A stretch of 64,000 bases of DNA. It comes from Amoebophrya sp. A120. Lineage: Eukaryota > Protista > Dinoflagellata. The stretch is taken from the NCBI GenBank assembly GCA_905178155.1, contig CAJINV010000001.1:15562142-15626141 (forward strand). The letters are read 5' to 3'. A program made the position numbers and the translations under genes. Positions 19,862 to 58,970 of the stretch are shown here, piece by piece; the stretch's first letter is position 1, and each line of letters opens with the position of its first letter. The notes beneath the pieces are model-generated. The model saw only the letters and a program-made list of their open reading frames with translations. It was not told where the DNA came from and made no database searches.

Positions 19862-20501
19862 AAGAAGATGAATCTCTCCAATGTATTATGCCCTCAAAGA
19901 CAAGATGCCGTCTTTTTATCTTTTCGATTCCTGACAGATGTATTTGATGAATGAACTTGTTGTTGTGTTCTGCTGATGAAATCGTGAAGCGCAAGCTACT
20001 AACTCACATCGCCTCGAATTCGCGTCCGCACTCGTGACCTTGTTTCAACCGAGTTTCTCGTTCGGTCGGGTTTTTCGTGTCGCCGTATTCTACTTATCAA
20101 AAAAAAAGTGCTGCTCGTCGCCTGGAATCTTGCGGCTACAATCATCTACATGGGAAACTACTTACTTTACATCATGCGTTGACTACATCGGTTCTCGTGT
20201 CAGATCGAAGCATACAGTCGTCAACGAACATATTCAGGGGCAGGGACGACGGAAAATCAAAACGGGGTACTAGTCGGGTGATAAAGTAGAGGGCGTGTAA
20301 GAGTGGCAGGCTTAGCTTGGTTCACTTTCGCCTCTCCATTCGTACAAGAGCATGCAGACTGTGTCAAATTATACTTAAGTAGAGCGATGAAGAGTAGTAC
20401 AATTACGACGTACATCAAGTCGTGACGCACTGTGCCTGCGCCACCGTTTCAATCATCTTTGTATAAATGAAAATGAGGAAGAATTTTTGGATTTTGGATA
20501 A

Positions 20502-21533
20502 GAGTGGGGTAACAATTGATTCAACTAAGTCGGAGTTTGCCGCGGGCGGAAACTTCCTCCTTCAGGAAATCGAAGAGCCGAGAACCCCGACCCGGGGTCC
20601 TGCCGTTACAGCACGCGAAAACCTTATGAGAAAATGCACTTTTGTAAACGGATTTTTGCACTTTTGGTGTGTTTTTTTTCGGGTGGGCATGAGCATCCCG
20701 AAAAAACATGGCAAGAGCTACTTTTTATGCATGACAGTTGCTGTTTATGCATGACAGATTATCCCTTTCTGCAATAAAAAAAGCAAACTTTTCTTCCTTT
20801 CCTGCAAAAGCAAAAAAAAGCAAAAGTCCGCACTTTTCATTTGGAAAAAGTGCAACCTTCTTCAGCTTCGCCTTCACATTCCCAGCTCGGGGGGGTTGCG
20901 CGTTCGCACGCAAAAGCCCGCACTTTCAAAAGTGCAATCTTTTTCAGCTTCATTCCCAGCTCGGCTCGGTGGGGTTGTGCGAATTCCCGGCTCGGGGGGT
21001 TGCGCGAATTCCCAGCTCCGGGGGTTTCGCGTTCGTTGCGCGTCTGGCGAACGCGCAACCCCCCCGAGCTGGGGATTCGCGCAACCCCCCCGAGCCGAGT
21101 GTGAATGCGAAGCTGAAAAAGGTTGCACTTTTTCCAGATGAAAAAAGTACTCAAATGAAAAATGCGGACTTTCGCTTTTTTTTGCTTTTGCAGGAAATGA
21201 AGGAAAATTAGTTTTTTTCAATTGCAGAAAGGGCTAATCTCTCATGCATAAACAGAAACTGTCATGCAGAAAAAACAGCATTTGCCATTTTTTTTCGGAA
21301 TGCTCCCCTGAAAAAAAAAACACGCCAAAAGCGCAAAAATCCGCTTACAAAAGTGCACTTTCTCATACGGTTTTCAGATGCTGGAACGGCAGGACCCCGG
21401 GTCGGGGTTCTCGGCTCTTCGATTTCCTGAAGGAGGAAGTTTCCCGCGACAAAGTCCGACTTAGTCGTCCGTGCGGCCGGACGGACGACTAAGTCGGCGA
21501 TCCGACTTAGTTGAGTCAATTGTTACCCCACTC
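20502..21533. mobile_element. Foldback MITE (PIF/Harbinger-like non-autonomous element), 1032 bp, intergenic
   Basis: Ends GAGTGGGGTAACAATTGA / TCAATTGTTACCCCACTC; arms imperfectly complementary for about 400 bp; TAA on both sides (20499-20501, 21534-21536). Confidence 0.88.
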
Positions 21534-21719
21534 TAATGTAGCGGGAAATTATGCTCGATGAAGCTTGGACGGAATCATCACCATCAGGGTAACATCACGA
21601 ACCAGCGCAACCACATGCCAGAAACCGCCGGTCGCAGTCGTCGAGGCACGCCTCGTATTTGTTTCGGCGTTTCAGTCGGTGGTCGCGTGATTTCAGTCTG
21701 TAGTTCCGTCCTGGCGAAG

Positions 21720-26237: not shown

Positions 26238-29200
26238 ATGCTTGTCGACGTGCTTCCGAGCCTAAGCAACCGCGAGCAGGAGGCGCTCGCCCAGCGCATC
26301 CGGTCACAGAATCAATTCGTGTGGCCTTGGGACGACATCGAAAGCGTTGATGGTGACGAGGAAGAAGAAAGGTCCAATAAAGGCACGACCGAAGCAGCAA
26401 CATCGTCGGTTCTGGTCGCGCCTCAACTCCTCCGAAGCTCCAGGCCGGTACTCCACGCGGTCCTGGACGTGTGTGTCAAGAGGTTCAGAAAGGCCTTCAG
26501 AGACCAGTTTCTGCTCAGGGATTTCTCTTGCGCCGGGCGGAGAAAAAACTCGCCGGGGATTCCGAAAAGTACGAGAACAATTCAAATTTTTCTTCCTCAT
26601 TCTGACTTTTTCTTCAGGATCAACTTACATACTTGCTTTACGATTGGTTACGTTTTTTTGCATCACCTCATTTTCTTCACCGAAGATGAACTTGAAGCCT
26701 TTGGTTTCGCATTGATGCCATTTTTAGCTGCTGCACTATCGAAGTAAAAAAAAGAAACGAACAACAACAAGATCAAGAACAACTGTCCAAGCCGTGCCGG
26801 TTCCGCGGCAACTACTCCGCCTATTATTCGCCCCCGGTCGATTTCAGTTATTTCCTGCAAAACCGCAACTCCTGGCTGGGCAGCACCAGACAAGCACTCT
26901 CGGGATTGACCTACGAGGTCGATCGGTCGGACTTCCGCCCAGCCTGGACGGTGGAGCGGGAGATTTTGCGGACCAACTCTTCCGTCGACGGTGTTTCCTG
27001 GGCGCAGATCGAGGAGCCCTTCTGGTTCTCGCACGGGCAGCGGGTGCAGCTGCTACCGGAGTCCTGCGGAACAGCGGGGGAGGATCTAAAGCTCTTCTCC
27101 CGGGACGTTGCGGATGATGACGAGATTTTCTTCAAATTGGCCAGTGCCGCGGACGAAGGCGATGAAGTAGAAGGTGAAGGCAGCTCCGAGCAGCAGGTGG
27201 GGAGGTGTCCTCGAGCAAACAAAGACGTCGACAATGTCGAGGACACGACTGACGGGGATTGGTATCAAGACAGTTCTTCCGACGATGAAGTAGAAGATGA
27301 TGACGATGCTGGCGAAGGAGCGATACATGAACGCCCCCACTCTCGCGTCGGAAGAGAGTCTCCGATCCGCCTGCCAATCTTTGTCTTCGGCCAGAATCGA
27401 CCGCTGCTTTGTTGGGCCTCTCGACGCTTGCAGGACAGCCACGCCGTTGTCTTCTGTTGCGTAAACCGACGTCCGCTGGACCTGCGGTTTGCCTCGACGC
27501 GGCTGCGAGACGATACTGCGATTGTTCGGAGAGCTGTATCGATCGACCCGGTAGCGCTGCAGTTCGCGTCGGACCGGCTACGGGACTCGGAGGTAGGTTT
27601 GGATTTTCGCACCTACTTACTCGAGTGTACGCGTACCTATCGATGTTGCTCTGCCAGGTTTCATCATAGCCATCGTCTCCATGTAAACGATAAAATCAAG
27701 ATTTTTTTCAGTGACACCAGTGGCAGTGTCCTCGATCGTGCTAGCGGTAGTTAGACTTTGAAAAACTCAAAAACGTCTAGGATATCCTACTCGCCTGCCG
27801 TTGCGATCCCTACCGATCCGGAGGGACCTGTTCAAACATGCGGAATACGGACGAGGACCGGAAAATTGCGGGGGCGCCCTACTACCACCACTGGTTCCGA
27901 TTTGCATCCGAGCGACTGCGCAACGACGTCTCCTTCGTCCAGCGCTTCGTCGAGACCTTGATCGCAAGCCGGGGTGGCCAAGGAAATTTGTTTCATGAAA
28001 TGCTTCAGCATGGGGGAGAGGACGTGCGGGACTGCGAAGCCATCGTTGTGCAGCTGATCCTCGGCAACCGCAGCCTACATGTCGGGGGCGCGAAAAAGAG
28101 AAAAAAAAGCGAGCGCAGTGAGAGCCGAGTAACTCGGGGCATGGGGTACTCCAACGACTACATCAGCTCCCGCTATTGTCTGAAATTCGCGTCCGAGCGG
28201 GTCCGGTCCCTGGAGCACCTGTGGCTGCTTTGCCTGGGCCCGCCACCGCTACCACGGGGAAAGACCATGGAGCAGCTGGCAGTTGAATTCGAGGCGAACA
28301 AAAAGGTGATCTCCTACTCTTCACACCCTCTGGTTCCCACGTGGAAGCTGCTGCCTGGGATCGCGGCCGAGCTGCTGACTTGGGCGCCCGACAGTATTCG
28401 TGACTCTGACGCTGTCATGGCGTTGGCGCTCGACTCCGACTGCTACTGTGTTCGCTTTGCATCGCCGCGGCTTCAACACGACGAAGCCTGGGTCCGCCAC
28501 CACGTTCTATCACACAACCGCAACCGCGGAAACTCCCACAGCCGTGTTGACCACGAACACCTAAGGAATCCATCCACAAAAGAACCGATTGCAACGGTGG
28601 CCGAGCTTTTCAAAGGCATAGGAAGAAATGGGGTTGTTCCAGTGGTGGGCAATGACTGTTCGTCAGCATCTGGCTCGCGGAAAAGCAACGGGGGCTACGC
28701 CGCCAAGGACGCCAGTGGCTGGGAAACGCACGTGCGTCGTCAGGGCGTGCCTCCTTTCGCATACCTGTCGCCTCGACTTCGCGACAATGAGGAAATTTTG
28801 GAATTAGCCTGCGGCTTTTTTCCGGAATCTTTTCTCTACGCAAGCGAGAGATTGCGGGAATCCTCCGTAAAGGCTGCTTGCACTGCGATCTGGGCGATTG
28901 GGCCGGTGTCCGACAGTTGGAAAAAAATTGAGAAAATTTTCGATTTTCATATCAACCCTGTTTGGCGCAAAGACGGCGCAGGGATGGAGCGGGAGGAGGT
29001 CCGATGTGCCCCGTTCTTGGCGCAATTGCACGAAAACCTGCGAGACAGCCCCACAGTTAATACCGCAGCCTGCGTCAAAGACGCCAGGGCCCTGCGCTTC
29101 GCGTCAGACCGCATTCGTAGTGGGGAAGGTGAGGACGCCGTGCAAGTTTTGCACACTGCGCTAAAGCAAAACGTGTGGGACGCGCTCGAATGCGTGGGCG

Positions 29201-29607
29201 ACACAGCGCTCAAGGAGAATCGAGGCAATGTTCTCGGCTGCGCCGGATACTGGAACTTCGTCGCCGCGATGGGGAAGATGCGGCGAATCTATTCACCAAA
29301 GTCAAAGTCCTTCAACAATATTGCTCCGATGGAGGATCTTCAGGATGACGAAGTAGAAGAGCAGAGTTCTTTGACACAACAACTCCTGCAGCACGTCGCA
29401 CGATACCGCGCCGACAAGATGTCGAGTGAAGGAGAAGATTTTTGCGCCAAGGAAGAGAAGGAAGAGGAACCGGGGGAGGTCGACAAGGACGGTGAGGCTG
29501 CTTCTGTACTAGACGAAGTTTCGAACTGCCTGAATCCTGATGACGTTGACGGCATCCACTGTCTCTGCCCAGCGCACTTGCGGAGGATAGGAGTCTGGGA
29601 CGCATAG
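26238..29607 (+). CDS. DUF4116 repeat protein, multi-exon
   Basis: Repeated units such as IVRRAVSIDPVALQFASDRLRD, CVRFASPRLQHD, SFLYASERLRE and ALRFASDRIR; three + strand ORFs separated by intron-like stretches. Confidence 0.75.
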
Positions 29608-30257
29608 ACAAAGAAACATAAGCTGTTGTTCATCTACGTCTTAGTTTTTGGCTTTACCATTACCAACGACCCTCCAGCGAGCACGAATAGATAAATGCAC
29701 GATCATCATGTTGCTGTATGATAGATGACAATCAAGGTGAAGTTGAGGTAGATGCGCCTTGATGTCGTACGTAAGTAAGTAGCTTCTTCGACCGAAACTA
29801 AAAAGAGTCACATTGGATTGCGCAGGTTTCCCACGGCTGCGGTTCACTGTCTTGCTGCTACTTACGGTTACGCACCTGAGTGTGCGAGTTTCAGTTTCCG
29901 GAGGCTTTTAGAACCGTGTTCGATGTGGGCGGTTCTTCACGGACTTTTTTTACGACGAATGTGTAATTAGCGAGAGCCACGTCAGGCTGTGCTGGCTGTA
30001 GTTGAGACGAGTTCTAGTACTTCTTCTGCCCTGCACAGCATAGAAAGAGCAGCAGATGAAGCAACACTATCACTAAAAAAATTCCTTGTCAATGTCTAGT
30101 ATGTCGATGCGTACCTAGCTGCTTTCTACTAGAGCTTGGCGCGGATTCGAACTTCATCCCGGTCCGCTTCTGTTTCGGTTTTATGTAAGTCACTTCGTTG
30201 TTCTGGCGAAGAACATTACGCCCCTCGTCATTTATGACCCCAATCCTCGTGAACAAC

Positions 30258-33200
30258 ATGGCGTCCTCGTCCTCTTACGCAACCGTGACCATCAATCTGC
30301 TGGCCACCGGTCGGCAGATTGAGATGCAAGCCTGGCCGGTGACGGAGACCGTCGCGGATCTGAAGCGGAACATTGAGCGGCAGTGCGCCATTGACCAGCG
30401 GCAGATGCGGGTGATGTGCAACGGGCGCAACCTGACGGAGGACTTCGCGACCCTGGCGTCCGTCGGGGTGGTCGACGGAAGTCAACTGGTTGTTGTGATG
30501 CGGCTGAACATGTACAACGAGGTGGCGGGGCAGACGAAAATCCACGGCGTCTCGAAGGACAACTACGGCAACGCGGTCGGGACCAACTTTGACCTGGCGA
30601 AGGACGGTGCGTTCGCGGGCGCCACGATCGCCGTTTTGCACTTGTACACGTTCGGCGGCTTTGACTTTTCGTACCCGCAGAAGGCTTTGGAGTTGAAGGG
30701 GCTCAAGATCAAGCGGTGGACGGAGCTCCCGCAGCCGTTTGAATTGGAGCGGCAAATCCAGGATTGCTGCCAATTGTGGCTGATCAGCAGCATCGAGGGA
30801 CGGTTGGAAGAGTCGCACATGAGTGTCATCAAGGATTTCTGGCACCGAGGAAACGGCGTGTACATCTGGGGGGAAAACAAGCCCTGCTACGAAGACGCGA
30901 ACCGGCTGGGGAAGTATTTGTATCAAATGGAAAAATGTCTGGGTCTGGAAGAATGCAACTTGTCATGCTAAATCTGAAGCATGCAAAAATCTGTGTTGCA
31001 TGATTACCAAAAGCCATCCAGTTTTGGCCAAGTCGGGAGGGAGTTTCTCATGCAGGATAGGCATGAGAGAGAGTGCACAGAATCTGTCATGTTAGGCTCT
31101 GCATTACAGACCTCATGAGTCATGTAAAATCTGCATGACAAGTCTGGCAGTCGATTTGAGGTAGTTGTTACGTGTGGTTGGTCTTTCGGTTCTGCCTGAG
31201 TATTTCCTTTTCAGTCAAATATTTAGTCTTCTGAACTTCGACTTCTTATCCTTATTTCTCGCCTATTTATTGGATGAAGCTAAACAGCGCCTCTGACTTA
31301 TTAATGTTTTTGGCGTATGTGACTCATCCATATATCAATGTGAAGGTCTTGTCGCAGGAGTCAGCATTTTTGTTGCTGTGCTCCTGGTTTTGGCTTTCTA
31401 TATGTTTAGCGAGTTGGAATTGTTGGCTAAGGTTGGCGTAATTTGGCAAAGTGGGATATGTTGGCGTGAAGTGTGTTGGAATCGTGGCCGGGAGATGATG
31501 GTGATGGCACTTCGGTGTCCGCCTGACCTACCTTCCCTGCGTGACAGCCATCTGCGGCTGTTTACAAAGGGGGAGGCAAAGTGTGCCGCACTTCTGTTTA
31601 GCATGACAAGTCTGGCATTCTTCCAGACCCAGACATTTTTACATTTGATAACTTGATAGGGGCGACCATGTCCGGAAACGTACCGGGAGGGAAGGTAGCA
31701 AGTTTGTAAAAGCTGCGCTGAAGCGGCATCATAGGATATGAATATGTGTATGTCAACATGTACATGGAAAATAAAAATACCAACTGCATTCGCATTCCGA
31801 CTGCTCTATTCAACAGCATTTCGATGTTCAGGTCGTGCGCGAGCGTCCCCTGGGTTCTAACAGCGGCAGTGGGTTCGTGCAGCACTTGATCACTACCGGT
31901 CTCGAAACGCTCTTTGAGGGCGTCACCGTTGCCACGATTCACCAGGACCGGAATTTTCACCGCCAGCGCATGATGCCTTTGGTCTACGGTTCCGACATGA
32001 TTCCGGATGACAAGAACCCCGGTGGACAAAAACCAAATTTGGTCACCGCCGTCTACGAGCAGGACGGGCGGCGGCTGATCATCGACACGGGGTTTACCCG
32101 GCTGTACGTCAACTGGGACTCGGCCGGTACCGGACGGTACGTCAGCAACGCGGCCGCGTGGCTGGCGAATTTCGAGCGGTTTCAGCAGATGGACGTACCC
32201 CTGGGCATGCTAGACGGGGGGCAGTTGCGGATGAACCGGGAGGAGGTGACGGAACTGCAGGAAGCGTTTATGCTGTTTGACAAGTCCCAGACCGGGTACA
32301 TCGACATCAAAGATTTGGAGTCCGTGCTCCTCTCCCTCGGGCAAATCGCGACGGCGGAGGAAGTCCGGGACTTGATCTCGGTCGTGACCATCGGGAACCC
32401 CGACGCGGCGCGGTTGAATTTTCAGGAATTCCTCGGCGTGATGAACAGCGCGATCGAAGACAAAAACGCGGAACAGGAGATCTACGAAGCCTTCAAGATG
32501 TTTGACATGGACCGCACGAGAAACATCAACGCGATGGAGCTGAAGAAAGTGATGGACAGTCTGGGCACGCAGGTGAGCCACGCGGACGTGGAGGAGATGG
32601 TGGTGGAGGCGGACCTGAACCACCAGCGGCGGATCAATTACGAGGAGTTTTACAAGATCATGATGGGGAACCAGATCGGGAAGAAGAACGTGAGCAAGGA
32701 GGAGCGCGACCGGCAGGAGAAGCTCGCGGAGCGGCGGCACGGCCGCGGGCCTGCGGCCACGATGGCGCACTTGCGCGCGGCGCAGCGGTGGGACGCGTTG
32801 CGCACGCAGGTCATGAAGGCGGTGCGGCGACACCGGGTGGATAATCAGGAGCAGGTCACGCAGGACAACGCGGAGCTGCTGGATAAACACCGCATCCGAC
32901 ACTTGATTGGCTTGGCACTCACGACGGTTGTGACCACCATCTGCATCGTCGTTCCACTGGTTCTGCAGGGGGCTTTTGAGTCTCAGATGGACGAGGCGCA
33001 CAACCTCCGTGCGCTCACCCACCACGGCAACGCGGTGCTGTACTATGACGAAGCAATGTCTATGGCAGCACGGATGACGGCCCTCACCGCCGCCCAGGAA
33101 ATGCTCGACCCGGTGAACATGGTGCCGGACAGCGCGAACGCCACGAAGAAGTACAATTTGTGCCATTTTGCGCCCCCGGCCGGCACGGAGTACCCGTATT

Positions 33201-35725
33201 TCTGCTGCGCCCGGTGGGTCAACCGCTACAACAGCTTCGGCCCGCAAATGGACGCCGCGATTGCGAACATCCAGAACCTCGCCCGGAGCATCGCGACCGA
33301 CTACGATTTACTGGTCGCGGCGTCGAACAGCAAACTGATCGCCCGGGAAACCATCGCGCTCAACATGTGTGGGGGTACTGGCACGTTCGGCAACGCCGGG
33401 ACCGGCATCCGCACGGCGGGGAACGGTCTGCTTTCCGTCCAGCCGGAATTGCTCTGGGGCTACGCACCCGGGGGCGTTGATTCCCCCGGTCGCGGGCTGT
33501 TGAACGGCATTGACGCGCTTTTCGACGAGGGCCACTTCGTCAAAACGAGTAATAGTGTAGAGGTGATGGACAGTTTGGTTGGCGGCAAGTTGCTCACCCG
33601 AACTTTCCAGGCGGACGAGATCGTTGCAAACTCCGCGACTTCGCTAACCCTGAAGCTAGCCGGCGTCGACCAAGTCAGATTAGCGTTAAAAGCCCCGCAA
33701 GCGACCAGCACGAATCAGCGCGTGTACATTGATCAGGTGTTTCCGGACACGGCTGCGCAGCGCGACGGGATCATCGAGGGAATGAACGATCCTTTGTACG
33801 GGGATTTCCGCCCCTTTCTCGTGGAACTGACCAACACGGCGACCAGCCAGAGCTACACCGGCACGGCGGGCAGCACCGGGTTCCACATGTGGCCGCGAAC
33901 GGCGGTAATTAGCGGTTTCCCCGGGTCGGGACAGGTGATCACGGTCCGGATCGCCGACCCGGTGACGCTGACAACGTACGATACCGAGAAGGTGAAGCTG
34001 CTGTCCGGCGTGAACAAGTTGGAGGAACTGATCAAGGAAAAAGTGGAAGACTTCGATCGCGACCACTGGACCACGGCCATGCGGAACGGCGTGGTTTTGG
34101 TGATTTGTGCCTTAATCCAAGGGTTCGCGGTCTTCTTGCTGATCTTGCAGGAGAAAAAGGCGGTTTTGGTTGAGTTCCAGCACTTCAAATCCGCAGACGA
34201 ATGCCAGGATCTGAAGCAGCGGGACTGGTTGACAAGCGAAGCCTTGCCTATTCTCCGGTCGACGATCGTAGAGGACATCTCGAGCTCCTGGACCAACAGG
34301 GACCAGACGACCCACAGCCCAAAGAGTAACAGAGGGGAGACAAACGCAAATAACCCCAATTCGAAGATGCACATTGTGATAGGGGAGAGCAACACTCAAC
34401 AAGGCAAGCAGCAAGCCCAGCAGCCGGCGCCGTTAACGCGGACGGAGAGCCAGAAAATGCGCATGACCGCGATCTGGACGAACAAATTTAAAAAGATCGC
34501 ACGATTGAAAAAGCTGCAGGAGCACATGTGCGAGCTGAACCGGGTGGAGGCGTTGCTCGCACCGTATAAGAAATACCGATTCCCGCTGATGATTGCCGCC
34601 GAGGTGATCTGTTTGCTCTGTATTCTTGTCCCCTCCCTGTTCGAAATCTACAACAACGAGTCGATCCGCGCCACGGCGGAGCTGCGGAATCTGCAGGGCG
34701 CCGCAGACCTGGTGGTGTACTACGACGAGGCGCTCACCATGTCCGCGCGCATGGCGGTGTTGCGCGGCGACGTCGGGGGCTGGTCGCGCCGCTACAACAG
34801 CTTTGTGGGGCCGATGGACGGGCTTCTGGGCTCGCCGCCGGGTGCGACCCCCGTGTTCAAGGGCAGGCTGGAGACCATTGAGGACGTTTTGCTCGACAAA
34901 TTCAACACGGACCACGACGAGGAACCGGGGATCGGAAACATTTGGGACCAGTACAACACGCAAGTTGTCACGGCCAACGCAGAACTCGTGGAGCTCGAGG
35001 GCGCGGCGCTCTCCATTGCGGCCCTCAAGGACAGCCCCGCTGGAAGCACGAATTTGGCGAGGTAGAGTTAGACTTTTTGTGCTAAGAATAATAAGTGGAA
35101 GACAGTCTACTGTCCTTGTCGAACAACATGTTGGCTGTTCTTGCTCTAGTCATCATCATCAAAGTAGTGAATGTGAGTCAATCTTGATGCAGTGCGTTAC
35201 ACTTACATACTACCTTCCAAGTAACCGTTTCCTATCAGCTACAACGCGGGCAAGTCGAACCTGTTTGGCACAACGTATCAGACGTATAAGGACACTCTGA
35301 AGAAGGCAATTCTGACGGAGACGCTGGTCCCGAAAATCAACAAACTGGTGGAGTACCAAGAACGCTCTGACGAGGACAGGAAAGATCTGAACACCGGCAT
35401 CATCACCACCGTGGCTGTGGTACTGGCTCTCATCCTTGCCGTTCTCGGCTACTACGAGCGTCAATCGATTGCGCTGGACAAAATTTTTCTCACCGCGTAT
35501 CGCAACGTGCTAAAATACGAGTCGCGGGATTGGCTCACCAACGACGCACTGCTGACCTTGCGGACCAACATCATTTCCGACGTGCGCCGGGCGACGTTGC
35601 GGCGATTCGACGAAGCTGACGACTCGCAGAAGCCCTTTATTGAGGTGCTGGATAAGCCAAAAGATCTGAACATTGCCGACGTGCCGGTGACGCCCAGCAC
35701 CATGCGGTTTATGGAAAATGCTTGA
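30258..35725 (+). CDS. Multidomain membrane protein: ubiquitin-like + alpha/beta (GATase/flavodoxin-like) domain + four EF-hands + two TM-sensor-TM modules
   Basis: Ubl (ETVADLKRNIE..QMRVMCNGRNL..TLASVGVVDGS); calmodulin-like LQEAFMLFDKSQTGYIDIKDL and EAFKMFDMDRTRNINAMEL; four hydrophobic helices; repeated YYDEA(M/L)(S/T)M(A/S)ARM and RYNSF. Joined via introner 30921-31650 and GT-AG introns 31694-31831 and 35062-35238. Confidence 0.8.
30921..31650. mobile_element. Introner, family A (subfamily A2), with nested insert, 730 bp
   Basis: TIRs TATCAAATGGAAAAATGTCTGGGTCTGGAAGAATGC / GCATTCTTCCAGACCCAGACATTTTTACATTTGATA; direct repeat ATTTG/ACTTG; removal gives GKYL|IGATMSGNV; interior homologous to 15413-15674. 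Confidence 0.92.
31150..31600. mobile_element. 451-bp insertion of unknown type flanked by a 17-bp duplication
   Basis: GCATGACAAGTCTGGCA at 31133-31149 and 31601-31617; removing insert plus one copy leaves 262 bp, the length of the sibling at 15413. Confidence 0.8.
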
Positions 35726-35854: not shown

Positions 35855-36218
35855 TATGACACATAAATCATCAACCAACGATAAGAACCTTGATCCACTC
35901 CAAAGATCCAAAGCACACCTAAACGGGCACGATCGTCACTAATTCAATTCTACTAGAGTAAGATGACTACTGAACCTGAAACAGGCTAAGACGGGCACGA
36001 ACGTCACGGCAAGAATAGTGAAGGTTCCCGAGTGCCCCAGTTTTGCCTGGGCACGCAGTACCATCGACCTTTACTCTTCCAATGAACCCCAGGGCCCTTG
36101 ATGCCAGTCAAGGCACACACACAAATAATCTCTCATGCATATTTGTACCACCTCAACTAGGTGTTGTTTTTACTCGTAGTGGGTTCGACCTCGTCGTTGG
36201 TTAGTTCGCATCTTCACA
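35855..36218 (+). repeat. 5' LTR
   Basis: TATGACACATAAAT...CATCTTCACA; appears identical to 42540-42903 by eye. Confidence 0.95.
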
Positions 36219-36232
36219 GAGTTATGAGCCCA
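36219..36232 (+). promoter_or_regulatory. Primer-binding site complementary to the initiator tRNA-Met anticodon arm (half-tRNA priming)
   Basis: GAGTTATGAGCCCA directly after the 5' LTR; the reverse complement TGGGCTCATAACTC contains the CAT anticodon loop. Confidence 0.75.
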
Positions 36233-36337
36233 AATTACCACTAAGATTTACTTCTGATTGCGAACATTTAAAATTACACTTTGCACCTAATTATCAGCAT
36301 TACAAATTTAGAATCATAAATACCCCAACGACAAACC

Positions 36338-39300
36338 ATGGGCGAGCTGACTGCAGCGCAGAAGCAAAACAAGAAGGAGAAGGCTGCGAAGGAAAAGGCT
36401 GCGAAGGAGAAAGCAGCAGCAGCAGCAACTTCTGGCGAGCCTGAGGGCGAACAGCAAACAGCCGGTGATGACGGAACCATCACGCCGAACCCGGGCAAGA
36501 AGAAAAAGAAGAAAAAGCAAAACACTTCTTCTACCGCCGACACCACTCTGACGCCGCAAACTGCGCCTAGCGTTGTGGCGAAGTTGTCGCAGATGGGAAA
36601 ACTGCTGGACGACTTGAAAGACGACAAGGGCGGCACTGTCGTTGCTGACCTCCGGAAGCAGCTCGAGGACGTCGCGAAGGAAGAACAACAGCGCGACGCG
36701 GATGCGAAGAAGCAGCTGCAGAAACCAGCCACGAAGACCAGTACGAAAAAGAAGAAACAGAAGAAACCGAAGCGGAAGGATTCCGATTCCGACATTCTGT
36801 CTTCTTCGGATTCCAGTGGTGGCAGCTGCGACGAAAACTCTTCTTCCGATTCCACAAGCGGTTCTGCGAGTTCCGAGGAGGACGAGAAACCGAAAAAGCG
36901 AAAGAAATCGTCGAACGAAAAAGACGAGAAGAAGATGGTCTTGTCGCAACTCCCGCTCTATCAAGATGACTCGTTACCGTTCACCGAGTACTTGTCGCTC
37001 GCGCAGGAGAAGTACAAGCCGAGCCGTATCCTGAAAGGGATTGAATCAAAAATCCAGCATACTACTACCCTGCGACAGTACTTAGCGGCGAAGAAGCGGA
37101 GGACAGTCCGCAAGGCGCATAACAGTTCGAAGCGCCTCCGGCGCATCATCAAGATCTTCCGGAACGAACTGCAAGACCCCGATGCAGGTATGGAGAAACT
37201 GGAAGATTGCAAGCAGGACCAGAACCAAAACCCACAGGAGTGGTATAAGAAGTTCTGCGAAGCTCTTGCTGAATTGCCTGAGGACAAACTGCCGTTCTCG
37301 GAAGTCGTCCGCTACGCCGAACGGAACGCGCAAAAGAACGTCAGGGGCATCATCGTCCAGGACAAACCGAGAAACGCGACGCAGCTGGCGGCTGCGATTG
37401 GCAAAGCGGAGAAGCTTTTCGGGAAGAAGAAGAAATCTGATGTCGCCTTCCCTGCCTTCCACGACCCGAAGGGCGGCCGCAAGCACAAAGGCGGTCGCCA
37501 TGGCAAGAAGGGTGGTGGCAAAGGCGGTAAGAAGGGCGGCAAGGGTGGTAAGCCCCGGAAGCCGTACAACCCGGACGCCTGGTGCGATTACTGCAACCGC
37601 GCCGGCCACTGGGAATCGGAGTGCCGTACCAAGCAGAATAACGACGGCGGCAAATCTGGGGCACCGGGGAAGCAGTACAACTCGTATGCAGCATCCGGCG
37701 ACCACAACAGCGGTGGACACCACCAACAGCATGGTGGATACCACCAGCAGCAGCAGCAGCAGGGGAACTACAACCAGTACGGTGCCCAGCACCAACAACA
37801 ACAAAATCCGTACCCCCCGCAGCAACTGCAACAACAGATGGTCCACCAACCGGCGAACCCGAACTACAACCAGCAGGGCGGATTTTTCTGTGCCGTGGCT
37901 GTCGAAATCTCCTGCCCCGACCACCCCCACAGTGCGTTTGCGACTCCCGCGACAGCAAACACGGTGGAGATGTTCTTGATGCTGGATTCTTGTGCGAGCA
38001 AGCACATGGCGGGACCGGTGCGGGTTCTGCATGAACTCGTGAAAGCGCCGGCAATGTCGTTTAGCACGGCAAACGGACCGACCACCAGTACTACCACGGG
38101 TTCTATCTGGTTGGAAACCTCACCGCCGATCAAGCTCCAGAACGTTGCCCACGTCCCTAGCCTCGGCAGCAGGGTGTTGCTGAGTTATCCGCTTTTGCGC
38201 AGAGCCGGTATCCCGATGTCCTTGGACAAGATGCAGTTCTTATCCTACGCGATCCAGCTCGTGGAAGGATGCACCCAGATCAAGCTCCCGGTGCGTATCA
38301 ACCACAAGGAACCGATCCAGACGGCGTTTGTAACCTGCAGCGAGGAACTCATGCAGGACTTGTGGCGCGCCACCCATGATTACTTTAATTCTTTGATTGG
38401 TTTCGATAGCTCTTTGCGTCTTCAGTTTTTCGAAATCGATTGCAAAAATCTCAGCACAAACGAGATAATCGCAGAAGTCGTTCACAACCGTCAAAAACGA
38501 CTTGCACTACTGGCGCCCATCATCAATGACGAGATCAAAGAAAAACTTCGTATTTTGTCAGCGTATCTCGATGAAAAAGTAGTAGTGCTTGATGGCCCGA
38601 GTCACCACCAGCATCGGACATTTGAAATCAAAGACGACGATGTCAGGTGGCTTGCATCTTGTGCCTACTCTTTTCCCGCGCCAGAGGTTCCACCAGAGGA
38701 CCAATCGCATGAGCCTGAGCCTGCTGCATCTTCGGGCCCCACGTCTTCACACGCGCAACAAGAAGATCGTGGCCAGGATGCAACCCGCAGCGCCTCAAGC
38801 GATTCTGAAAATGCCGACCGCTCTGAGCTACCTACTTCGGATCATCTTGGCTCTGAGCAGCCCAAGGCCAAAAAGAAGAAAAAGGCCAAGAACAAAAAGC
38901 GCAAAAAGGCCGACCAGGACCAGGACCAACCAAAGCGAACGCGCCCGGCGAAGAAGTTCAGGCGAACAGATTCGACCGAGGCCCCGGCTTTCGAGCAAAT
39001 TAGTTATGAAAAGATATGCCAGCTTGGCGCTTGCCTTTTTATGCCTACTTTCCAAAAGTTGTGGGAAATTGTCCGAACGCTTGACAACTCCCAGCGCTCC
39101 AGAAGTATGGTTATTCACTTCTGCAAGCACAACTTGACGCGCCTTAAGACCCATGCCTTTCCCCACCATAAAGTCGGAGGAGTTGAAGCCAATTCTTTGT
39201 CCGACTGGTGCGCCTTAGATACGTTTTTTCCGTTAGGTAAGGAGTTTAGCGTGCTACATGGGATCAACATCCATTCCCGCGCCAGCACCACCACAACTTT

Positions 39301-42280
39301 CAAACGAGCAGTCAAGATGCAGGACACTGCTGATTTTTTAGAGTACTTGAAAACTGTTGGCATGATGGGCAAGAACATTCTTTGCGACCAAGGCAAGGAG
39401 TTTGACAACATAAAAGTGCGCGAATGGTGCCAGCTGTATGGCATTCAGCTTTTCCTGACGCCTAAGGCTTCTTGGGTGAATGGAACTTGCGAGCGCCGCC
39501 ATCGTCTTTTGCGTGCTGTTTTGCATCGTCTTTATTACGTTTATGGCCAAAAGAGTTCTATCATCCCGCGCCTGGTACAACAAGCAACAAACGCGGTTAA
39601 CATGACGCCCACCGCTGCGCTTGACGGGCTTGCGCCTGCGCAGGTGCAGTGGGTCATAAATCCGATTAAGCTCGAGCCTAATTTTGTAGAAGATTTGACA
39701 GAGCAGCAAGCAGTTTTAGTCAACGAGCAAAGTCCTGAGTCCGATTACAAAATCCGTTGTAGGGCCCGTGCTCTGGTCGAAGAGCTGAAGCACGACAGAC
39801 AGCTTGTAGATGAGACGCGGAAGCTGAGGGAACTTCAGCGCAATTTTTATCATGAATCCGACGAGTGCAAAGTTGGAGAATTGGTAGAAATTTTCGACAA
39901 GGACAAAGAAGCATGGTTAGGTCCCTGCACCTTAATCCATCGCCAAGTGAACAACAACTCAGTCACTTTCGTTGTGGATCATGATGGCAGGTATCGCCGT
40001 TCGCATGCGTCTCACGTACGTAGGCACCTGACGGCCACTGCTATGACTTTTCCACCCATGTTACTCAAAAGCCTCTACAAAACGCACAACGTCCCTGATA
40101 GCCATCCGGACACGCCCCAGGGCGAATTTCTCGACGAAGAGACAACCATCAAAATAGTTCCGGATGGTAATGCGAAGGTCGCACCAAAAACCCTCGATGC
40201 AGCTGACAGCATCAAAGCCGACCCAAAATCGAGCACCGATGCCCCCGCCGCATCAAGTAGCAGCGCAAGCTCGTCATCTCGTGAACCTGACACGCTCCCG
40301 CCGCCTGGCAACGGTGGCCCGGCTGTCTCACTTGATGTTGCACCCATCGAACTAGAGAAAAAGTTCCGTCTTACCAAGGACTACTATCAGGGCGTTTTCG
40401 ACAAACTCAAATCTGAAGAGGTGCAGCGCGTACGCCAGTTGATCGCGACAACTGAAACAGCGCCGGTGCGTGGCGCTTGGATAAAACGCAACGAACAACG
40501 TGAGAAAACGCTACTCACAGTGCGCGCGTTAATCGATGCTCAGCCCGAGTATTCGCATTTGAAAGAAGCACAAAAGCACAAAGTCGCTTCTGACATCGCA
40601 GAACGATGCCGACAGCTCAACATCAACGACATTAACGACAATACGCTTGCAGCCATGCTTGCGCCCCTCATTTGTGCTGACTGGGAGCCTGGTGAAGTTT
40701 GCTACAAAGCTATCGCTGTCCCTGATCACAAGTCTGGTTTTGACACTACAGAGCCCGCTTGGAAAGAAGCCATTTCTAAAGAAGTCAAAGCACATTCTCA
40801 CGTATTCAGGCCTGCTACACCTGAAGAAGTCGAACGGTTCAAACGCAGCGGCAGCAGAGCAGTACCCTGCAAAATGTTGCTTAGTGTAAAGCGCTGCGGC
40901 AAACGTAAGGCCCGGATCGTATGCTTAGGCTTTCTGGACAAAATGTCTGGGAACCAGAAGTATGCTACTGTGCCTGATTTAAGTATTTTGCGTATGTTGC
41001 TTTGTATGAAAGTTCAGTCACCTAGGATGTTTGCATTCCCTTCCGACGCTACTTCAGCCTTTTTGCAAGCAAAGTACCCAGTTCCGGTCGTGATCGATCT
41101 CGATCAGCGATTGCAAAACGAGCTAGGCTACCGCCTTGGTGTGGTAGAATACGCCATGAATGGCCTGCGCCTTAGTTCCCGCGCCTGGGAAGACCACCGC
41201 GATGCCGTTCTTGTCAAACAAGAATGGAAGCGCAACCCCATCGAGGCCACTCTCTGGACTCGTGCCGGTGTTTTGTTGTTAGTATTTGTAGATAATTTTT
41301 GGTTTTTCGGTGACAAGGAAGAAGTTTTGAAGTACCACGAAGAACTTAAGCCCGCGCTAAAGTTACAACCCGAAGAGGTTCGCGACGAAGGTACGCACCT
41401 CGTCTACGATGTCCTTGGCATCGAAGCCCGCGAAAACAAAAAGACCGGCGACATGGTCTTGAACCAAGACAAATACGTGCAGAAAATTCTTGATCGCTTT
41501 GGCGGTGACACAGGTCGCAACACTTCCACGCCAATGGATGCGCCTCCTGATGTCTCTGCGCCTGAAGTGCCTGAATTAGTCAAAACCAAGCAAGAACTAA
41601 CTGGCTCCTTACAGTATTTGTGTCAAACCAGGATGGACATAGTCGTAGCTTTAAAGATGTGCGCCCGCGTGAAAGCTACTCCCGAGTGCATTTTGGCACT
41701 CAAGCGCATCGTGCGCTACTTACGGACCCGCCGAGGTCTCCGATACAAAAACCGAAGTGAAAAGTTTGGAGATCGTCTTATCCTCACCGCGTGGAGCGAC
41801 TCCGACTGGGCTAGTTTCGGAGATAGAAAGTCTAATTCCGGCGTAGTGATCTGTCTGAACGGAAATGCCATCGCATGGCGTTGCGCAAGTCAAAACAGCG
41901 TTAGTTCTAGCGTTTCTGAAGCTGAGCTCTATGGCATGAGCGAAGCCGCGAAAATGGTTTTACGTTTTCACTATTGTCTTGAATCTTTGCGCCCGTTTTG
42001 GAAAAAGTTCTTTGCATCACACAGCCTTTTACTGCCTATTCAACTTGGATGTGACAACTCCAGCGCAATTTCGTATACTGAAAACCAAAACGGCACCAAA
42101 AGCGCTTTGAAACATATCGACATCCGTGGCATGCAGATGCGCGATTTGCAAGAGAAACAACTTATCAAGTGCGTTTATCACTCGACCAAGATTAACAAGT
42201 CAAACGGTTTGACTAAGACTTGTCCTCCTATCGAGTTTCGTGCATTTCTCGAACTAAACGACATAATCGAGTTGGATTAA
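36338..42280 (+). CDS. Copia Gag-Pol polyprotein (1980 aa)
   Basis: Zn knuckle CDYCNRAGHWESEC; protease LDSCASKHM; integrase LDTF/CDQGKEF/NGTCERRHR; RT SDATSAFL, AMNGLRLSSRAW, LVFVDNF; RNase H SDSDWA, SEAEL, CDNSSAI, KHIDIR. Confidence 0.96.
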   Translation: MGELTAAQKQNKKEKAAKEKAAKEKAAAAATSGEPEGEQQTAGDDGTITPNPGKKKKKKKQNTSSTADTTLTPQTAPSVVAKLSQMGKLLDDLKDDKGGTVVADLRKQLEDVAKEEQQRDADAKKQLQKPATKTSTKKKKQKKPKRKDSDSDILSSSDSSGGSCDENSSSDSTSGSASSEEDEKPKKRKKSSNEKDEKKMVLSQLPLYQDDSLPFTEYLSLAQEKYKPSRILKGIESKIQHTTTLRQYLAAKKRRTVRKAHNSSKRLRRIIKIFRNELQDPDAGMEKLEDCKQDQNQNPQEWYKKFCEALAELPEDKLPFSEVVRYAERNAQKNVRGIIVQDKPRNATQLAAAIGKAEKLFGKKKKSDVAFPAFHDPKGGRKHKGGRHGKKGGGKGGKKGGKGGKPRKPYNPDAWCDYCNRAGHWESECRTKQNNDGGKSGAPGKQYNSYAASGDHNSGGHHQQHGGYHQQQQQQGNYNQYGAQHQQQQNPYPPQQLQQQMVHQPANPNYNQQGGFFCAVAVEISCPDHPHSAFATPATANTVEMFLMLDSCASKHMAGPVRVLHELVKAPAMSFSTANGPTTSTTTGSIWLETSPPIKLQNVAHVPSLGSRVLLSYPLLRRAGIPMSLDKMQFLSYAIQLVEGCTQIKLPVRINHKEPIQTAFVTCSEELMQDLWRATHDYFNSLIGFDSSLRLQFFEIDCKNLSTNEIIAEVVHNRQKRLALLAPIINDEIKEKLRILSAYLDEKVVVLDGPSHHQHRTFEIKDDDVRWLASCAYSFPAPEVPPEDQSHEPEPAASSGPTSSHAQQEDRGQDATRSASSDSENADRSELPTSDHLGSEQPKAKKKKKAKNKKRKKADQDQDQPKRTRPAKKFRRTDSTEAPAFEQISYEKICQLGACLFMPTFQKLWEIVRTLDNSQRSRSMVIHFCKHNLTRLKTHAFPHHKVGGVEANSLSDWCALDTFFPLGKEFSVLHGINIHSRASTTTTFKRAVKMQDTADFLEYLKTVGMMGKNILCDQGKEFDNIKVREWCQLYGIQLFLTPKASWVNGTCERRHRLLRAVLHRLYYVYGQKSSIIPRLVQQATNAVNMTPTAALDGLAPAQVQWVINPIKLEPNFVEDLTEQQAVLVNEQSPESDYKIRCRARALVEELKHDRQLVDETRKLRELQRNFYHESDECKVGELVEIFDKDKEAWLGPCTLIHRQVNNNSVTFVVDHDGRYRRSHASHVRRHLTATAMTFPPMLLKSLYKTHNVPDSHPDTPQGEFLDEETTIKIVPDGNAKVAPKTLDAADSIKADPKSSTDAPAASSSSASSSSREPDTLPPPGNGGPAVSLDVAPIELEKKFRLTKDYYQGVFDKLKSEEVQRVRQLIATTETAPVRGAWIKRNEQREKTLLTVRALIDAQPEYSHLKEAQKHKVASDIAERCRQLNINDINDNTLAAMLAPLICADWEPGEVCYKAIAVPDHKSGFDTTEPAWKEAISKEVKAHSHVFRPATPEEVERFKRSGSRAVPCKMLLSVKRCGKRKARIVCLGFLDKMSGNQKYATVPDLSILRMLLCMKVQSPRMFAFPSDATSAFLQAKYPVPVVIDLDQRLQNELGYRLGVVEYAMNGLRLSSRAWEDHRDAVLVKQEWKRNPIEATLWTRAGVLLLVFVDNFWFFGDKEEVLKYHEELKPALKLQPEEVRDEGTHLVYDVLGIEARENKKTGDMVLNQDKYVQKILDRFGGDTGRNTSTPMDAPPDVSAPEVPELVKTKQELTGSLQYLCQTRMDIVVALKMCARVKATPECILALKRIVRYLRTRRGLRYKNRSEKFGDRLILTAWSDSDWASFGDRKSNSGVVICLNGNAIAWRCASQNSVSSSVSEAELYGMSEAAKMVLRFHYCLESLRPFWKKFFASHSLLLPIQLGCDNSSAISYTENQNGTKSALKHIDIRGMQMRDLQEKQLIKCVYHSTKINKSNGLTKTCPPIEFRAFLELNDIIELD

Positions 42281-42528
42281 CCGAAAACGTTCCGAGTATG
42301 AAAAACACCACAGACCGCCAGCAACCCTAACTGGACACCAACGAACGAACGAACGAACGCGAAGAAATTCGGCGCAAGGGGGACTGCTGATGACTATCGA
42401 AGAGAGTTTTATTATGCACCAAATTTATTCGCTTCCATTTACGCCTGCATTCATTTTTCGCAAGTCTCGCAAAGACTATAAACAAAGAACCTGCAATACA
42501 GATTTTATTTTTTGACTTTGGATTTGGA

Positions 42529-42538
42529 GTGAGGGGGA
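42529..42538 (+). promoter_or_regulatory. Polypurine tract
   Basis: GTGAGGGGGA ending one base before the 3' LTR. Confidence 0.7.
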
Positions 42539-42539
42539 C

Positions 42540-42903
42540 TATGACACATAAATCATCAACCAACGATAAGAACCTTGATCCACTCCAAAGATCCAAAGCA
42601 CACCTAAACGGGCACGATCGTCACTAATTCAATTCTACTAGAGTAAGATGACTACTGAACCTGAAACAGGCTAAGACGGGCACGAACGTCACGGCAAGAA
42701 TAGTGAAGGTTCCCGAGTGCCCCAGTTTTGCCTGGGCACGCAGTACCATCGACCTTTACTCTTCCAATGAACCCCAGGGCCCTTGATGCCAGTCAAGGCA
42801 CACACACAAATAATCTCTCATGCATATTTGTACCACCTCAACTAGGTGTTGTTTTTACTCGTAGTGGGTTCGACCTCGTCGTTGGTTAGTTCGCATCTTC
42901 ACA
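42540..42903 (+). repeat. 3' LTR
   Basis: Direct repeat of 35855-36218, followed by GATGG. Confidence 0.95.
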
Positions 42904-43504
42904 GATGGCGAACTAGTAGTGTAATAGATGGAGGTGCGAGTAGAGCTGTCTTCTGTGTATGATATCCAAAATCAAAAACGAATGACGCCATCGAGCTGCG
43001 AATTTTGCAAGACTGCTGCAGGTGCAGCTGCACGTGGCAGCACGCTTGTTCCTCGCCTGTGGCGTTCATGGACCTATTTTCTCTTGGAAGCTAGCTTTGC
43101 CGCATCGGATGACTATTGTTCGTCCGCCCAATGGTCTCTGCATTAGCATTTCCACATGCTGAGAAATATTATAAAGGACTCAGCAGTAGTTCATTTTAAT
43201 TTAGGAGAGAACGACGAGTCGAGCGACTTTGAGAATAGACAAGAGAAACAGCAGTAGTAGCTTCTGAAAGTGCTGCGGCCTGTCCCTGTGACTTACGGCT
43301 CCTTATGCAACTACACTAAAGTTCAAGTTCTATCATGTTGACTACTAGCTGGTCCTCGACCTCGAGCCAACGACCGGCGAAGGTCTATCACGACTACTAC
43401 TACTACTAGCTGGCTAGATCTACAAAAAAATCTTGAAAAGTCTTCTGCGCGCGGCCTTCTATCTTGTATCACGAACAAGATCTTCAAACTCTCTCGTTAC
43501 AACA

Positions 43505-57908: not shown

Positions 57909-58970
57909 AAGAACACCGCTGAGGCTGACAGATTTTTTTTTTTGGATGCTAACAGGTGGATGGCTCTGTCAATCCATTAAACCACACGCAAAGTGGTTCT
58001 GGACGAGTTGACGACTGCAATTAGTGGCGAACTCCGCCTCCGTTGAGTATCGGCATCGCAACAACATAAAATTTGAATTTCGTAAAATAATTGCTCAACA
58101 CCACACTCTCACTCAACACAGGAGCTCCCATTTTGGTTGAATGAGCACAAATCGTATTGGGAAGAGCACCAGGAGGAGGCTACACTTGCCCAGCGGCTTG
58201 CAACCAGAACGGGCCAGCCAACACAAGCTCGACGAAGCAGAGAAAAAAGTAACTAAAAACAAGGTGATATCAAACCGGAATCAGCTTGAACAGAAACAGT
58301 TTTTGTTGATATCTTCATGAGTGCTGAAATTTCGTCGTCAACATCGATCAGTATCTATGAAAGACAAAAGCTAGTAGACAAAACCTCAGCGTCGCTGAAG
58401 CTTTGTCTACCTCTACTGCGGAACAGCCAACCTGCATAAGCCCTCACCCTACAATCAAGGGGCAACAATAACATTTAACGAGTGTTCTTGATGTTTTCGA
58501 CGTAATTTGGAACTGATAACATCACTTGGATACATATTGATTTATACATAGTTTTTTTCCAGCGGTAGGACGACCCGAGGAAATTTTCTTTTTCGCTTTC
58601 AGTTTCAGCCAGGCGCCATCTCAACGAACAGACATCAAGATTTCCTTCTCGTCCACGTCGCAGTCGACCCTGATCCTCGACAAAGCTGTATGATCTTTTT
58701 TACCTTCATCACCAGGACCTCCTACATAAAGCTGCTTAAAATTTGAATTTCGTCTGCAACGGACATGATTGTTACTCTTTTTTCACGTCTTACTCTTATG
58801 TTCGGAATAGGATTTATAATAAGCATATATAAAGATACATGTTGATCTACACGCAAAAATTTAGCACATTCTTAGTGTCTGTCCTGTGATGTTCGTTCTT
58901 CGAGTTGCCGATAACGCTGTATGCTTTTACTCTTTCAGTGGTTTCTCCCTGAACAAATCAATCCCAAAAG

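Follow-up and report, generated by a model that had tools for sequence, protein, structure and literature searches.

Bacterial extracellular sensor domains have been reused in eukaryotic membrane proteins, as in the CHASE-type cytokinin receptors of plants. Bacterial-derived Cache sensors are described in alpha2delta subunits and in dCache_1 proteins of protists (PMC8915833, available part), and the four-helix ligand-binding domains of bacterial receptors dimerise, with the ligand stabilising the dimer (PMC6381276, available part). We examined a stretch of 64,000 nucleotides (nt) of the Amoebophrya sp. A120 genome (contig CAJINV010000001.1; hereafter the window), in which one gene (30234..35725, + strand, as all its features below) encodes a receptor-like protein of 1480 amino acids (aa). 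This protein resembles the Cache and CHASE receptors in carrying a bacterial extracellular sensor in a eukaryotic membrane protein, but its sensor is all-helical and is fused to a cytoplasmic cassette of ubiquitin-like, GIFT-like and calmodulin-like domains, which the available part of PMC8915833 does not describe for those receptors. The architecture is real, conserved and undescribed. The earlier note on this stretch, made from the letters alone, had not recognised it, and we found no catalogued family that matched it. Our literature search, which most subscription papers lay outside, found no paper on the sensor motif, the gene identifiers, dinoflagellate four-helix sensors or the architecture, and no report of four-helix-bundle sensors in eukaryotic membrane proteins.

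The coding sequence, in a region with two long + strand open reading frames (ORFs) and one short ORF, comprises four exons (30234-30920, 31656-31694, 31832-35061 and 35239-35725), with the ATG at 30258 as alternative start. The joined exons translated letter for letter into P0001 (CAD7929199.1, an unnamed product of Amoebophrya sp. A120). Intron 1 (30921..31655, 735 nt) is non-canonical, while intron 2 (31695..31831, 137 nt) and intron 3 (35062-35238) are GT-AG introns; the first two split the alpha/beta domain of the cassette over exons 1-3, and the third interrupts the second sensor. All three splice joints were present, exactly as predicted, in the intron-free runs X1-X4, whereas the DNA run X5 retained the introns and had no joints in its contigs. 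Runs X1-X4 are contigs, not long reads, of one sample, and their RNA nature is the guess of the tool, with no RNA label on the record. In X1 and in X2 a single contig of about 4.7 kb spanned the whole coding region and all three joints, which supports one spliced transcript encoding both the cassette and the membrane part, as the earlier note had supposed. The raw RNA runs X8-X10 had 2, 4 and 0 reads on the gene, respectively, too few to test the joints. The 64-kb window contained no A120 paralogue; outside it, paralogues were sought through the protein searches alone.

C-terminal to the cassette, the protein consists of two modules, each composed of a transmembrane helix (TM), a four-helix bundle, a second TM and a cytoplasmic helix with an RDWLT motif. 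Module 1 comprises TM1 (32906..32962; aa 601-619; hydropathy 2.39), sensor 1 (32963..34090), TM2 (34091..34147; aa 996-1014; hydropathy 3.01) and the first RDWLT helix (34148..34285; motif at 34220). Sensor 1 includes the pieces of the four-helix bundle, a loop with a conserved Cys and a variable insertion of about 190 aa (33377-33955), predicted to be extracellular. A variable linker separates the first RDWLT region from a conserved Trp helix that precedes module 2. The latter comprises TM3 (34586..34642; aa 1161-1179; hydropathy 2.54), sensor 2 (34643..35392), TM4 (35393..35449; aa 1371-1389; hydropathy 2.53) and, according to the alignments, a cytoplasmic helix with the second RDWLT motif (35525) and a conserved C-terminal tail (35450..35722). 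The motifs were doubled in the same order in both modules: YYDEA at 33041 and 34718, RYNSF at 33224 and 34790, and RDWLT at 34220 and 35525, the last pair within 1 nt of the positions given in the earlier note. The two modules matched each other by blastp (E 3e-7) and by profile-profile comparison (probability 99% over the pre-TM region, the TM and the first sensor helix). Four distant repeated 5-mers went modestly beyond chance (at least four were reached in 6 of 1000 shuffles); we base the duplication on the ordered alignment and the conservation in orthologues, not on the 5-mers alone. Both termini are predicted to be cytoplasmic and both bundles to lie outside, given the bacterial layout, the absence of a signal peptide and the basic residues that precede TM1 and TM3. 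Two further readings of the RDWLT motif were considered: as a remnant of the GGDEF S-helix/DxLT turn it aligned with DxLT at a probability of 8.6% and lacked GLxNR, and as a Dpy-30 helix, which it resembles, it had no Pfam match.

Sequence comparison showed genuine homology between the sensor and a bacterial domain for which Pfam has no model; across many phyla this domain is part of histidine kinases, chemoreceptors and diguanylate cyclases. Of 1.84 billion proteins, 1301 matched the two-module profile at E<=0.001. Among the 150 matches listed, 147 were new, and 95 of these 147 (51 of 86 and 44 of 61) carried bacterial signalling domains following the sensor, namely kinase, GGDEF/EAL, MCP, PAS/GAF, STAS and SpoIIE. 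A profile made only of bacteria (86 sensor domains from 77 named bacterial genome loci) matched P0001 with 74 bits (E 1.2e-15 at 1.8e9), the best shuffle reaching 5 bits, and still gave 27.8 bits after both YYDEA motifs were masked. The conserved D, Y, Y and K, which sit on helices 1, 2 and 4, were kept in 151, 155, 161 and 151 of the 161 bacterial-type sensors, respectively, and each in all 31 eukaryote-type ones. Both A120 modules hold D, E, R, W, R, Y, N, E, Y and K, the invariant polar residues of the family on all four helices. The fold evidence comes from a model of sensor 2 (predicted local distance difference test, pLDDT, 83): among its 48,161 structural matches, the seven highest-ranking were bacterial ligand-binding domains (Z 11.5-13.1), the best being PcaY_PP (Z 13.1, root-mean-square deviation, rmsd, 2.1, 135 aligned residues).

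The TM-flanked four-helix bundle is thus shared with solved bacterial domains (PcaY_PP 6s18, HK9 3va9, Adeh_2942 4k0d, Vc1313 8bsa, Tsr 2d4u and McpN/PilJ 6gcv), but at 5-11% identity and without a Pfam sensor match or N-box in the A120 sensor. The Pfam models 4HB_MCP_1, TarH, PilJ and CHASE3 gave no match at E<=1 for P0001 or the three related fusions P0002, P0005 and P0273. Only one of the 147 listed relatives (P0179) passed the 4HB_MCP_1 cut-off, and the Atlas gives PilJ, TarH and CHASE3 only as look-alikes. The nitrate N-box (PMC6381276, available part) was absent from every protein analysed, and searches of PDB sequences with the sensors and the insertion found nothing meaningful. The A120 protein also differs from the bacterial four-helix receptors in having two modules in one eukaryotic chain and in lacking an output of the HAMP, kinase, MCP or GGDEF type. 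Pfam detected only ubiquitin and EF-hands in it, with no kinase or cyclase, as the earlier note had stated; NCBIfam added only a weak EF-hand match, and neither scan found HisKA/HATPase, MCPsignal, GGDEF or cyclase output domains. The genes next to the sensor at 80 bacterial loci were only generic two-component and chemotaxis genes, with no hint of the ligand. We also observed cyanobacterial chemotaxis-like clusters with a chemoreceptor carrying this sensor (L027, L039, L040, L045, L060 and L066, as a tandem pair in the last two), which are good candidates for finding the ligand of the sensor.

The sensor motif was found in about 700 stretches of the genome collection; the best 80 loci were taken and 78 gave the sensor domain, 14 of them cyanobacterial, 14 planctomycete and the remainder from many phyla. 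The likeness to cyanobacterial periplasmic sensors proposed in the earlier note thus holds as bacterial homology, but not as a cyanobacterial affinity, and the eukaryotic copies stand apart. Entries of Symbiodinium, Effrenium, Gymnodinium and Tetraselmis contained two-module relatives without the cassette, and a Hemiselmis entry contained a fragment with one module (the last two are transcriptome entries, with contamination possible). In a tree of 101 rows and 137 columns, 29 eukaryote-labelled rows and one single-module protein fell behind a branch with a support of 96 (Shimodaira-Hasegawa approximate likelihood ratio test, SH-aLRT), apart from the 9 cyanobacterial rows, and a FastTree of 192 rows agreed. 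The sensor trees are short and unrooted, the long-branch row P0256 was left out, and some eukaryotic labels were inferred. Because of the wide use of the domain in bacteria, we infer a transfer from bacteria to eukaryotes, for which no donor can be named. The transfer looks old, since Symbiodinium, Effrenium, Gymnodinium and the two algal entries carry relatives without the cassette; the horizontal acquisition put forward before is therefore in line with the bacterial homologues, but its restriction to this lineage is not supported. Three proteins (P0157, P0163 and P0247, one of them an MMETSP transcript) have a lone TM-sensor-TM with no output domain and branch beside the two-module eukaryotic group, and are possibly pre-duplication forms.

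The complete fusion is conserved in syndinian parasites. Beyond A120, four independent records encode it: proteins of A25 (P0002, 64% identity to the A120 protein), Hematodinium (P0005, 43%) and a JGI entry (P0273, 42%) match over the full length, and a Logan entry (P0006) is truncated. P0005 is named after its GEMP prefix, which is linked to Hematodinium (PMC6642578, available part). The search of other alveolates proposed in the earlier note thus recovered the architecture in A25 and Hematodinium. The cytoplasmic cassette was the best-kept part, its GIFT-like domain being 81% identical to that of A25 and 59-61% to those of the other fused proteins, and the C-terminal tail was 77% identical to A25 and 51% to Hematodinium. 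The RDWLT motifs and the Trp helices were kept in the relatives that carry the cassette.

The cassette begins with a ubiquitin-like domain (30282..30509, aa 17-92; Pfam PF00240, 32.5 bits with a cut-off of 25.4), located upstream of the sensors as previously noted. In all five fused proteins it lacks the C-terminal di-Gly and runs directly into the next domain, and the ubiquitin signalling proposed before is not supported. The next domain (30510..32191, aa 93-362) is the alpha/beta domain of the earlier note, with a length of about 270 aa rather than 230. A model of the stand-in P0010 (51% identical to the A120 domain; pLDDT 88, Foldseek E 1.8e-8) assigns it the GIFT/IFT52-like class-I amidotransferase fold. 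The model matched the IFT52 N-terminal domain, OST48 and ThuA-like proteins with Z 18.7, 16.9 and 16.7, respectively (for IFT52-N, rmsd 2.5 over 193 aligned residues), but the identity to GIFT proteins is 13-18%, there is no IFT52_GIFT Pfam match, and the domain makes a separate, highly conserved family. The nucleophile elbow, which we take to be the position of the catalytic Cys in class-I glutamine amidotransferases and compared on that basis, reads W-G-E/D-N with no Cys; the sole conserved Cys (C179) precedes a different strand, and many polar residues are invariant.

We found 994 relatives of the GIFT-like domain at E<=1e-10 among shorter proteins, the best 120 being mostly 50-55% identical. 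The named ones are from Bacteroidota, some of them fused to Hsp70; further clusters, from rotifers and Myxococcota, came from the Atlas together with GIFT/ThuA look-alikes. The domain was found at the C-terminus of Hsp70 proteins and, in Bacteroidota and Myxococcota, also alone and likely secreted (P0009, P0076 and P0279-P0288). No Pfam model corresponds to it, and the neighbourhoods of 80 GIFT-like loci shared nothing. One of the 13 long proteins found, P0278 (Logan, 1952 aa), combines two TM-Cache-TM modules with a GIFT-like domain in the cytoplasmic tail, and thus shares with the A120 protein both its layout of two modules and its GIFT-like domain. Its GIFT-like copy grouped with the syndinian ones (local support 99 in a FastTree of 72 rows, with long branches). 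As two unrelated sensor types are joined to the same GIFT-like domain, the latter may be an unrecognised receptor output domain, on the evidence of this one record. P0278 also has a TPR and, as judged by eye, a vWA-like region into which the GIFT-like domain is inserted.

The calmodulin-like domain (32228..32665, aa 375-520; Pfam EF-hand_7, 77 bits) has two EF-hand pairs with calmodulin spacing, and calmodulin chains filled its list of PDB matches. The loops of EF1, EF3 and EF4 are recognisable and near-canonical, and make a regulation by Ca2+ plausible; of the four EF-hands announced before, EF2 proved degenerate. Alignments showed a conserved basic Trp helix after this domain (32762..32845, aa 553-580), a candidate for its built-in target, and a second one (34448..34525) as a candidate calmodulin-binding site. 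Calmodulin-binding helices often follow a 1-5-8-14 pattern. In the second helix W1124, F, I and L occupy these positions, and W/F/I/L were found there in 4 of 7 relatives, with position 8 polar in the other three. The arrangement is similar to that of calcium-dependent protein kinases, where a tethered four-EF-hand domain also lies beside a conserved basic amphipathic helix, but in the A120 protein there is no kinase, and the helix comes after the EF-hands and leads into the membrane module.

On balance, the protein is probably a receptor for a small molecule, pseudo-dimeric within a single chain and tuned by Ca2+, for which we infer the ligand, the pseudo-dimer, the calmodulin target and the output as follows. 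With the termini in the cytoplasm and both bundles facing outward, the two modules would pack together and replace the bacterial homodimer; the pseudo-dimer is proposed because four-helix sensors act as ligand-stabilised dimers, of which the duplication would supply both halves. A small polar ligand, probably of the same class as that of the bacterial family, would bind close to the membrane-distal tip at the conserved cluster D/T/R-Y-N/E-Y/K, a site whose retention is suggested by the conservation of the polar residues. Helix 4 and TM2/TM4 would then shift the cytoplasmic helices that end in RDWLT. Rising Ca2+ would make the tethered calmodulin-like domain clamp one of the basic Trp helices, by which the receptor would be reset or gated. 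The output would pass through the GIFT-like and ubiquitin-like domains as binding surfaces, or through an activity of the GIFT-like domain, and not through phosphorylation or cyclic nucleotides. The prediction of a complex between modules 1 and 2 gave 0.22 and 0.14 with a mark of 0.34, and speaks neither for nor against the pseudo-dimer, as it was made without an alignment and the controls were not folded.

Several observations weigh against this receptor model. Between A120 and Hematodinium, conservation is lower in the sensors (26-39%) than in the cytoplasmic parts (46-61%), the motif of A120 module 1 has drifted (L>M, T>S and S>A), a Z of about 13 is borderline for helical bundles according to the tool's own note, and Foldseek found no match at E<=0.001 with the module 2 model. 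On the calcium side, besides the degenerate EF2, EF1 ends in Asp, EF3 and EF4 have Arg at position 6, and a PDB search with the Trp helices found no matching peptide bound to calmodulin. Regarding the output, 98 of 115 bacterial stand-alone GIFT-like proteins have a hydrophobic N-terminus and look secreted, while the domain is cytoplasmic here; most two-module eukaryotic relatives carry no cytoplasmic Pfam domain, and the cassette is therefore dispensable for the job of the core. Finally, in X3 and X4, from the same single sample, the transcript was split into two contigs at 32740-32790, possibly by GC dropout or by a short second isoform.

The occurrence of the membrane modules alone in core dinoflagellates and algae, together with the lack of any catalytic output in the protein, also fits a reading that we hold unlikely but worth serious weight, in which the two-module core would sense the ligand as an auxiliary subunit and, like alpha2delta with calcium channels, act in trans on another protein (a channel, cyclase or kinase), the cassette being a syndinian addition for trafficking or turnover (e.g. 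at the flagellum or the proteasome). The bacterial-derived dCache_1 sensors of alpha2delta subunits (PMC8915833, available part) are a precedent, and in fold the alpha/beta domain comes closest to the GIFT domain of IFT52. However, the cassette is the best-conserved part and the RDWLT motifs and Trp helices are conserved with it, which suggests direct coupling.

It is improbable that the protein itself is a channel or transporter gated by a ligand or by Ca2+, in which several chains would contribute their TMs to the pore and the tethered calmodulin would be the gate: the Pfam, NCBIfam and PDB searches returned no channel family, no pore motif was seen and the protein is laid out like a bacterial signal transducer, even though conserved residues in the TMs are polar or break helices (Gln in TM2; Glu/Gln and Val-Pro in TM1/TM3), there are relatives that lack an output domain, and a calmodulin-like domain is tethered with basic Trp helices beside the membrane. 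Equally doubtful is a purely structural role, in which the bundles would bind no ligand but serve as a stalk displaying the module 1 insertion as a possible host-attachment domain, with the cytoplasmic part linking attachment to Ca2+. The insertion is indeed the fastest-changing extracellular part (38% identity to A25, 10-13% to the Hematodinium-like proteins) and is absent from free-living relatives, but it matches no adhesin, the buried polar D, Y, N, E, Y and K of both modules would be needless in a pure stalk, and display could coexist with sensing. It is very improbable that annotation or assembly joined two neighbouring genes by mistake, or that the sensor part is bacterial contamination, as the break of the X3 and X4 contigs between the calmodulin-like domain and TM1 (with a 2-3.5x higher depth downstream, and a short Hematodinium ORF of 921 aa starting at the matching place) falls on a patch of 80% GC inside a stop-free exon of 3230 nt and is bridged by X1 and X2, the same fusion is found in four independent records, and a spliced intron splits sensor 2.

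Under the receptor model, the sensor is a concrete, soluble and easily expressed domain for ligand screening in a parasite that contributes to the end of algal blooms; to our knowledge, the host-finding cues of Amoebophrya are not identified. One such screen may also annotate the Pfam-less bacterial sensor family, since the residues are so well kept, and the conserved GIFT-like domain is flagged as a candidate receptor output. More tentatively, and rather unlikely in its entirety, dinoflagellates would have duplicated a bacterial sensor into pseudo-dimeric receptors, to which syndinians added calmodulin and a GIFT-like output, the latter also used in Cache-type protist receptors; the receptor would serve host detection by the dinospore, with a ligand shared with the orphan bacterial family.

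Intron 1 of the receptor gene fits the introner elements of Amoebophrya, a type of element already known (PMC7789003, available part). It has terminal inverted repeats (30921-30956 and 31615-31650), a direct repeat at the boundaries (ATTTG/ACTTG), a cut that can slide over 30917-30920, ends other than GT-AG and multiple copies, and it is spliced out. It shares these traits with the described introners but is longer (735 nt), with arms of at least 36 nt compared with 8-20 nt in the available part of that paper. Canonical GT-AG readings of intron 1 were discarded: two break the frame, two stay open and add residues, and the non-canonical joint was present in all four runs, with the same junction residues in A25. 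Three further copies of the repeat family are located in the window, each with a perfect direct repeat of 5 nt (2189-2444, 15413-15674 and 60847-61101), the last adjoining a Y-family polymerase ORF (58953-60851) at its end, and the arms of the family had an enormous depth in the DNA run.

Upstream of the receptor gene, a gene with DUF4116 repeats (26696-29607), spliced at 27590-27779, was found on separate contigs of low depth, and a nested fold-back element of about 1 kb (20498-21537) has arms of up to 132 nt with 93% complementarity. About 130 nt past the stop of the receptor gene starts a Copia-type long terminal repeat (LTR) retrotransposon (35855-42905), with LTRs of 366 nt that are 100% identical (35855-36220 and 42540-42905) and an unbroken ORF of 1980 aa containing reverse transcriptase and integrase; the transcript contig of the receptor gene extends into its LTR.

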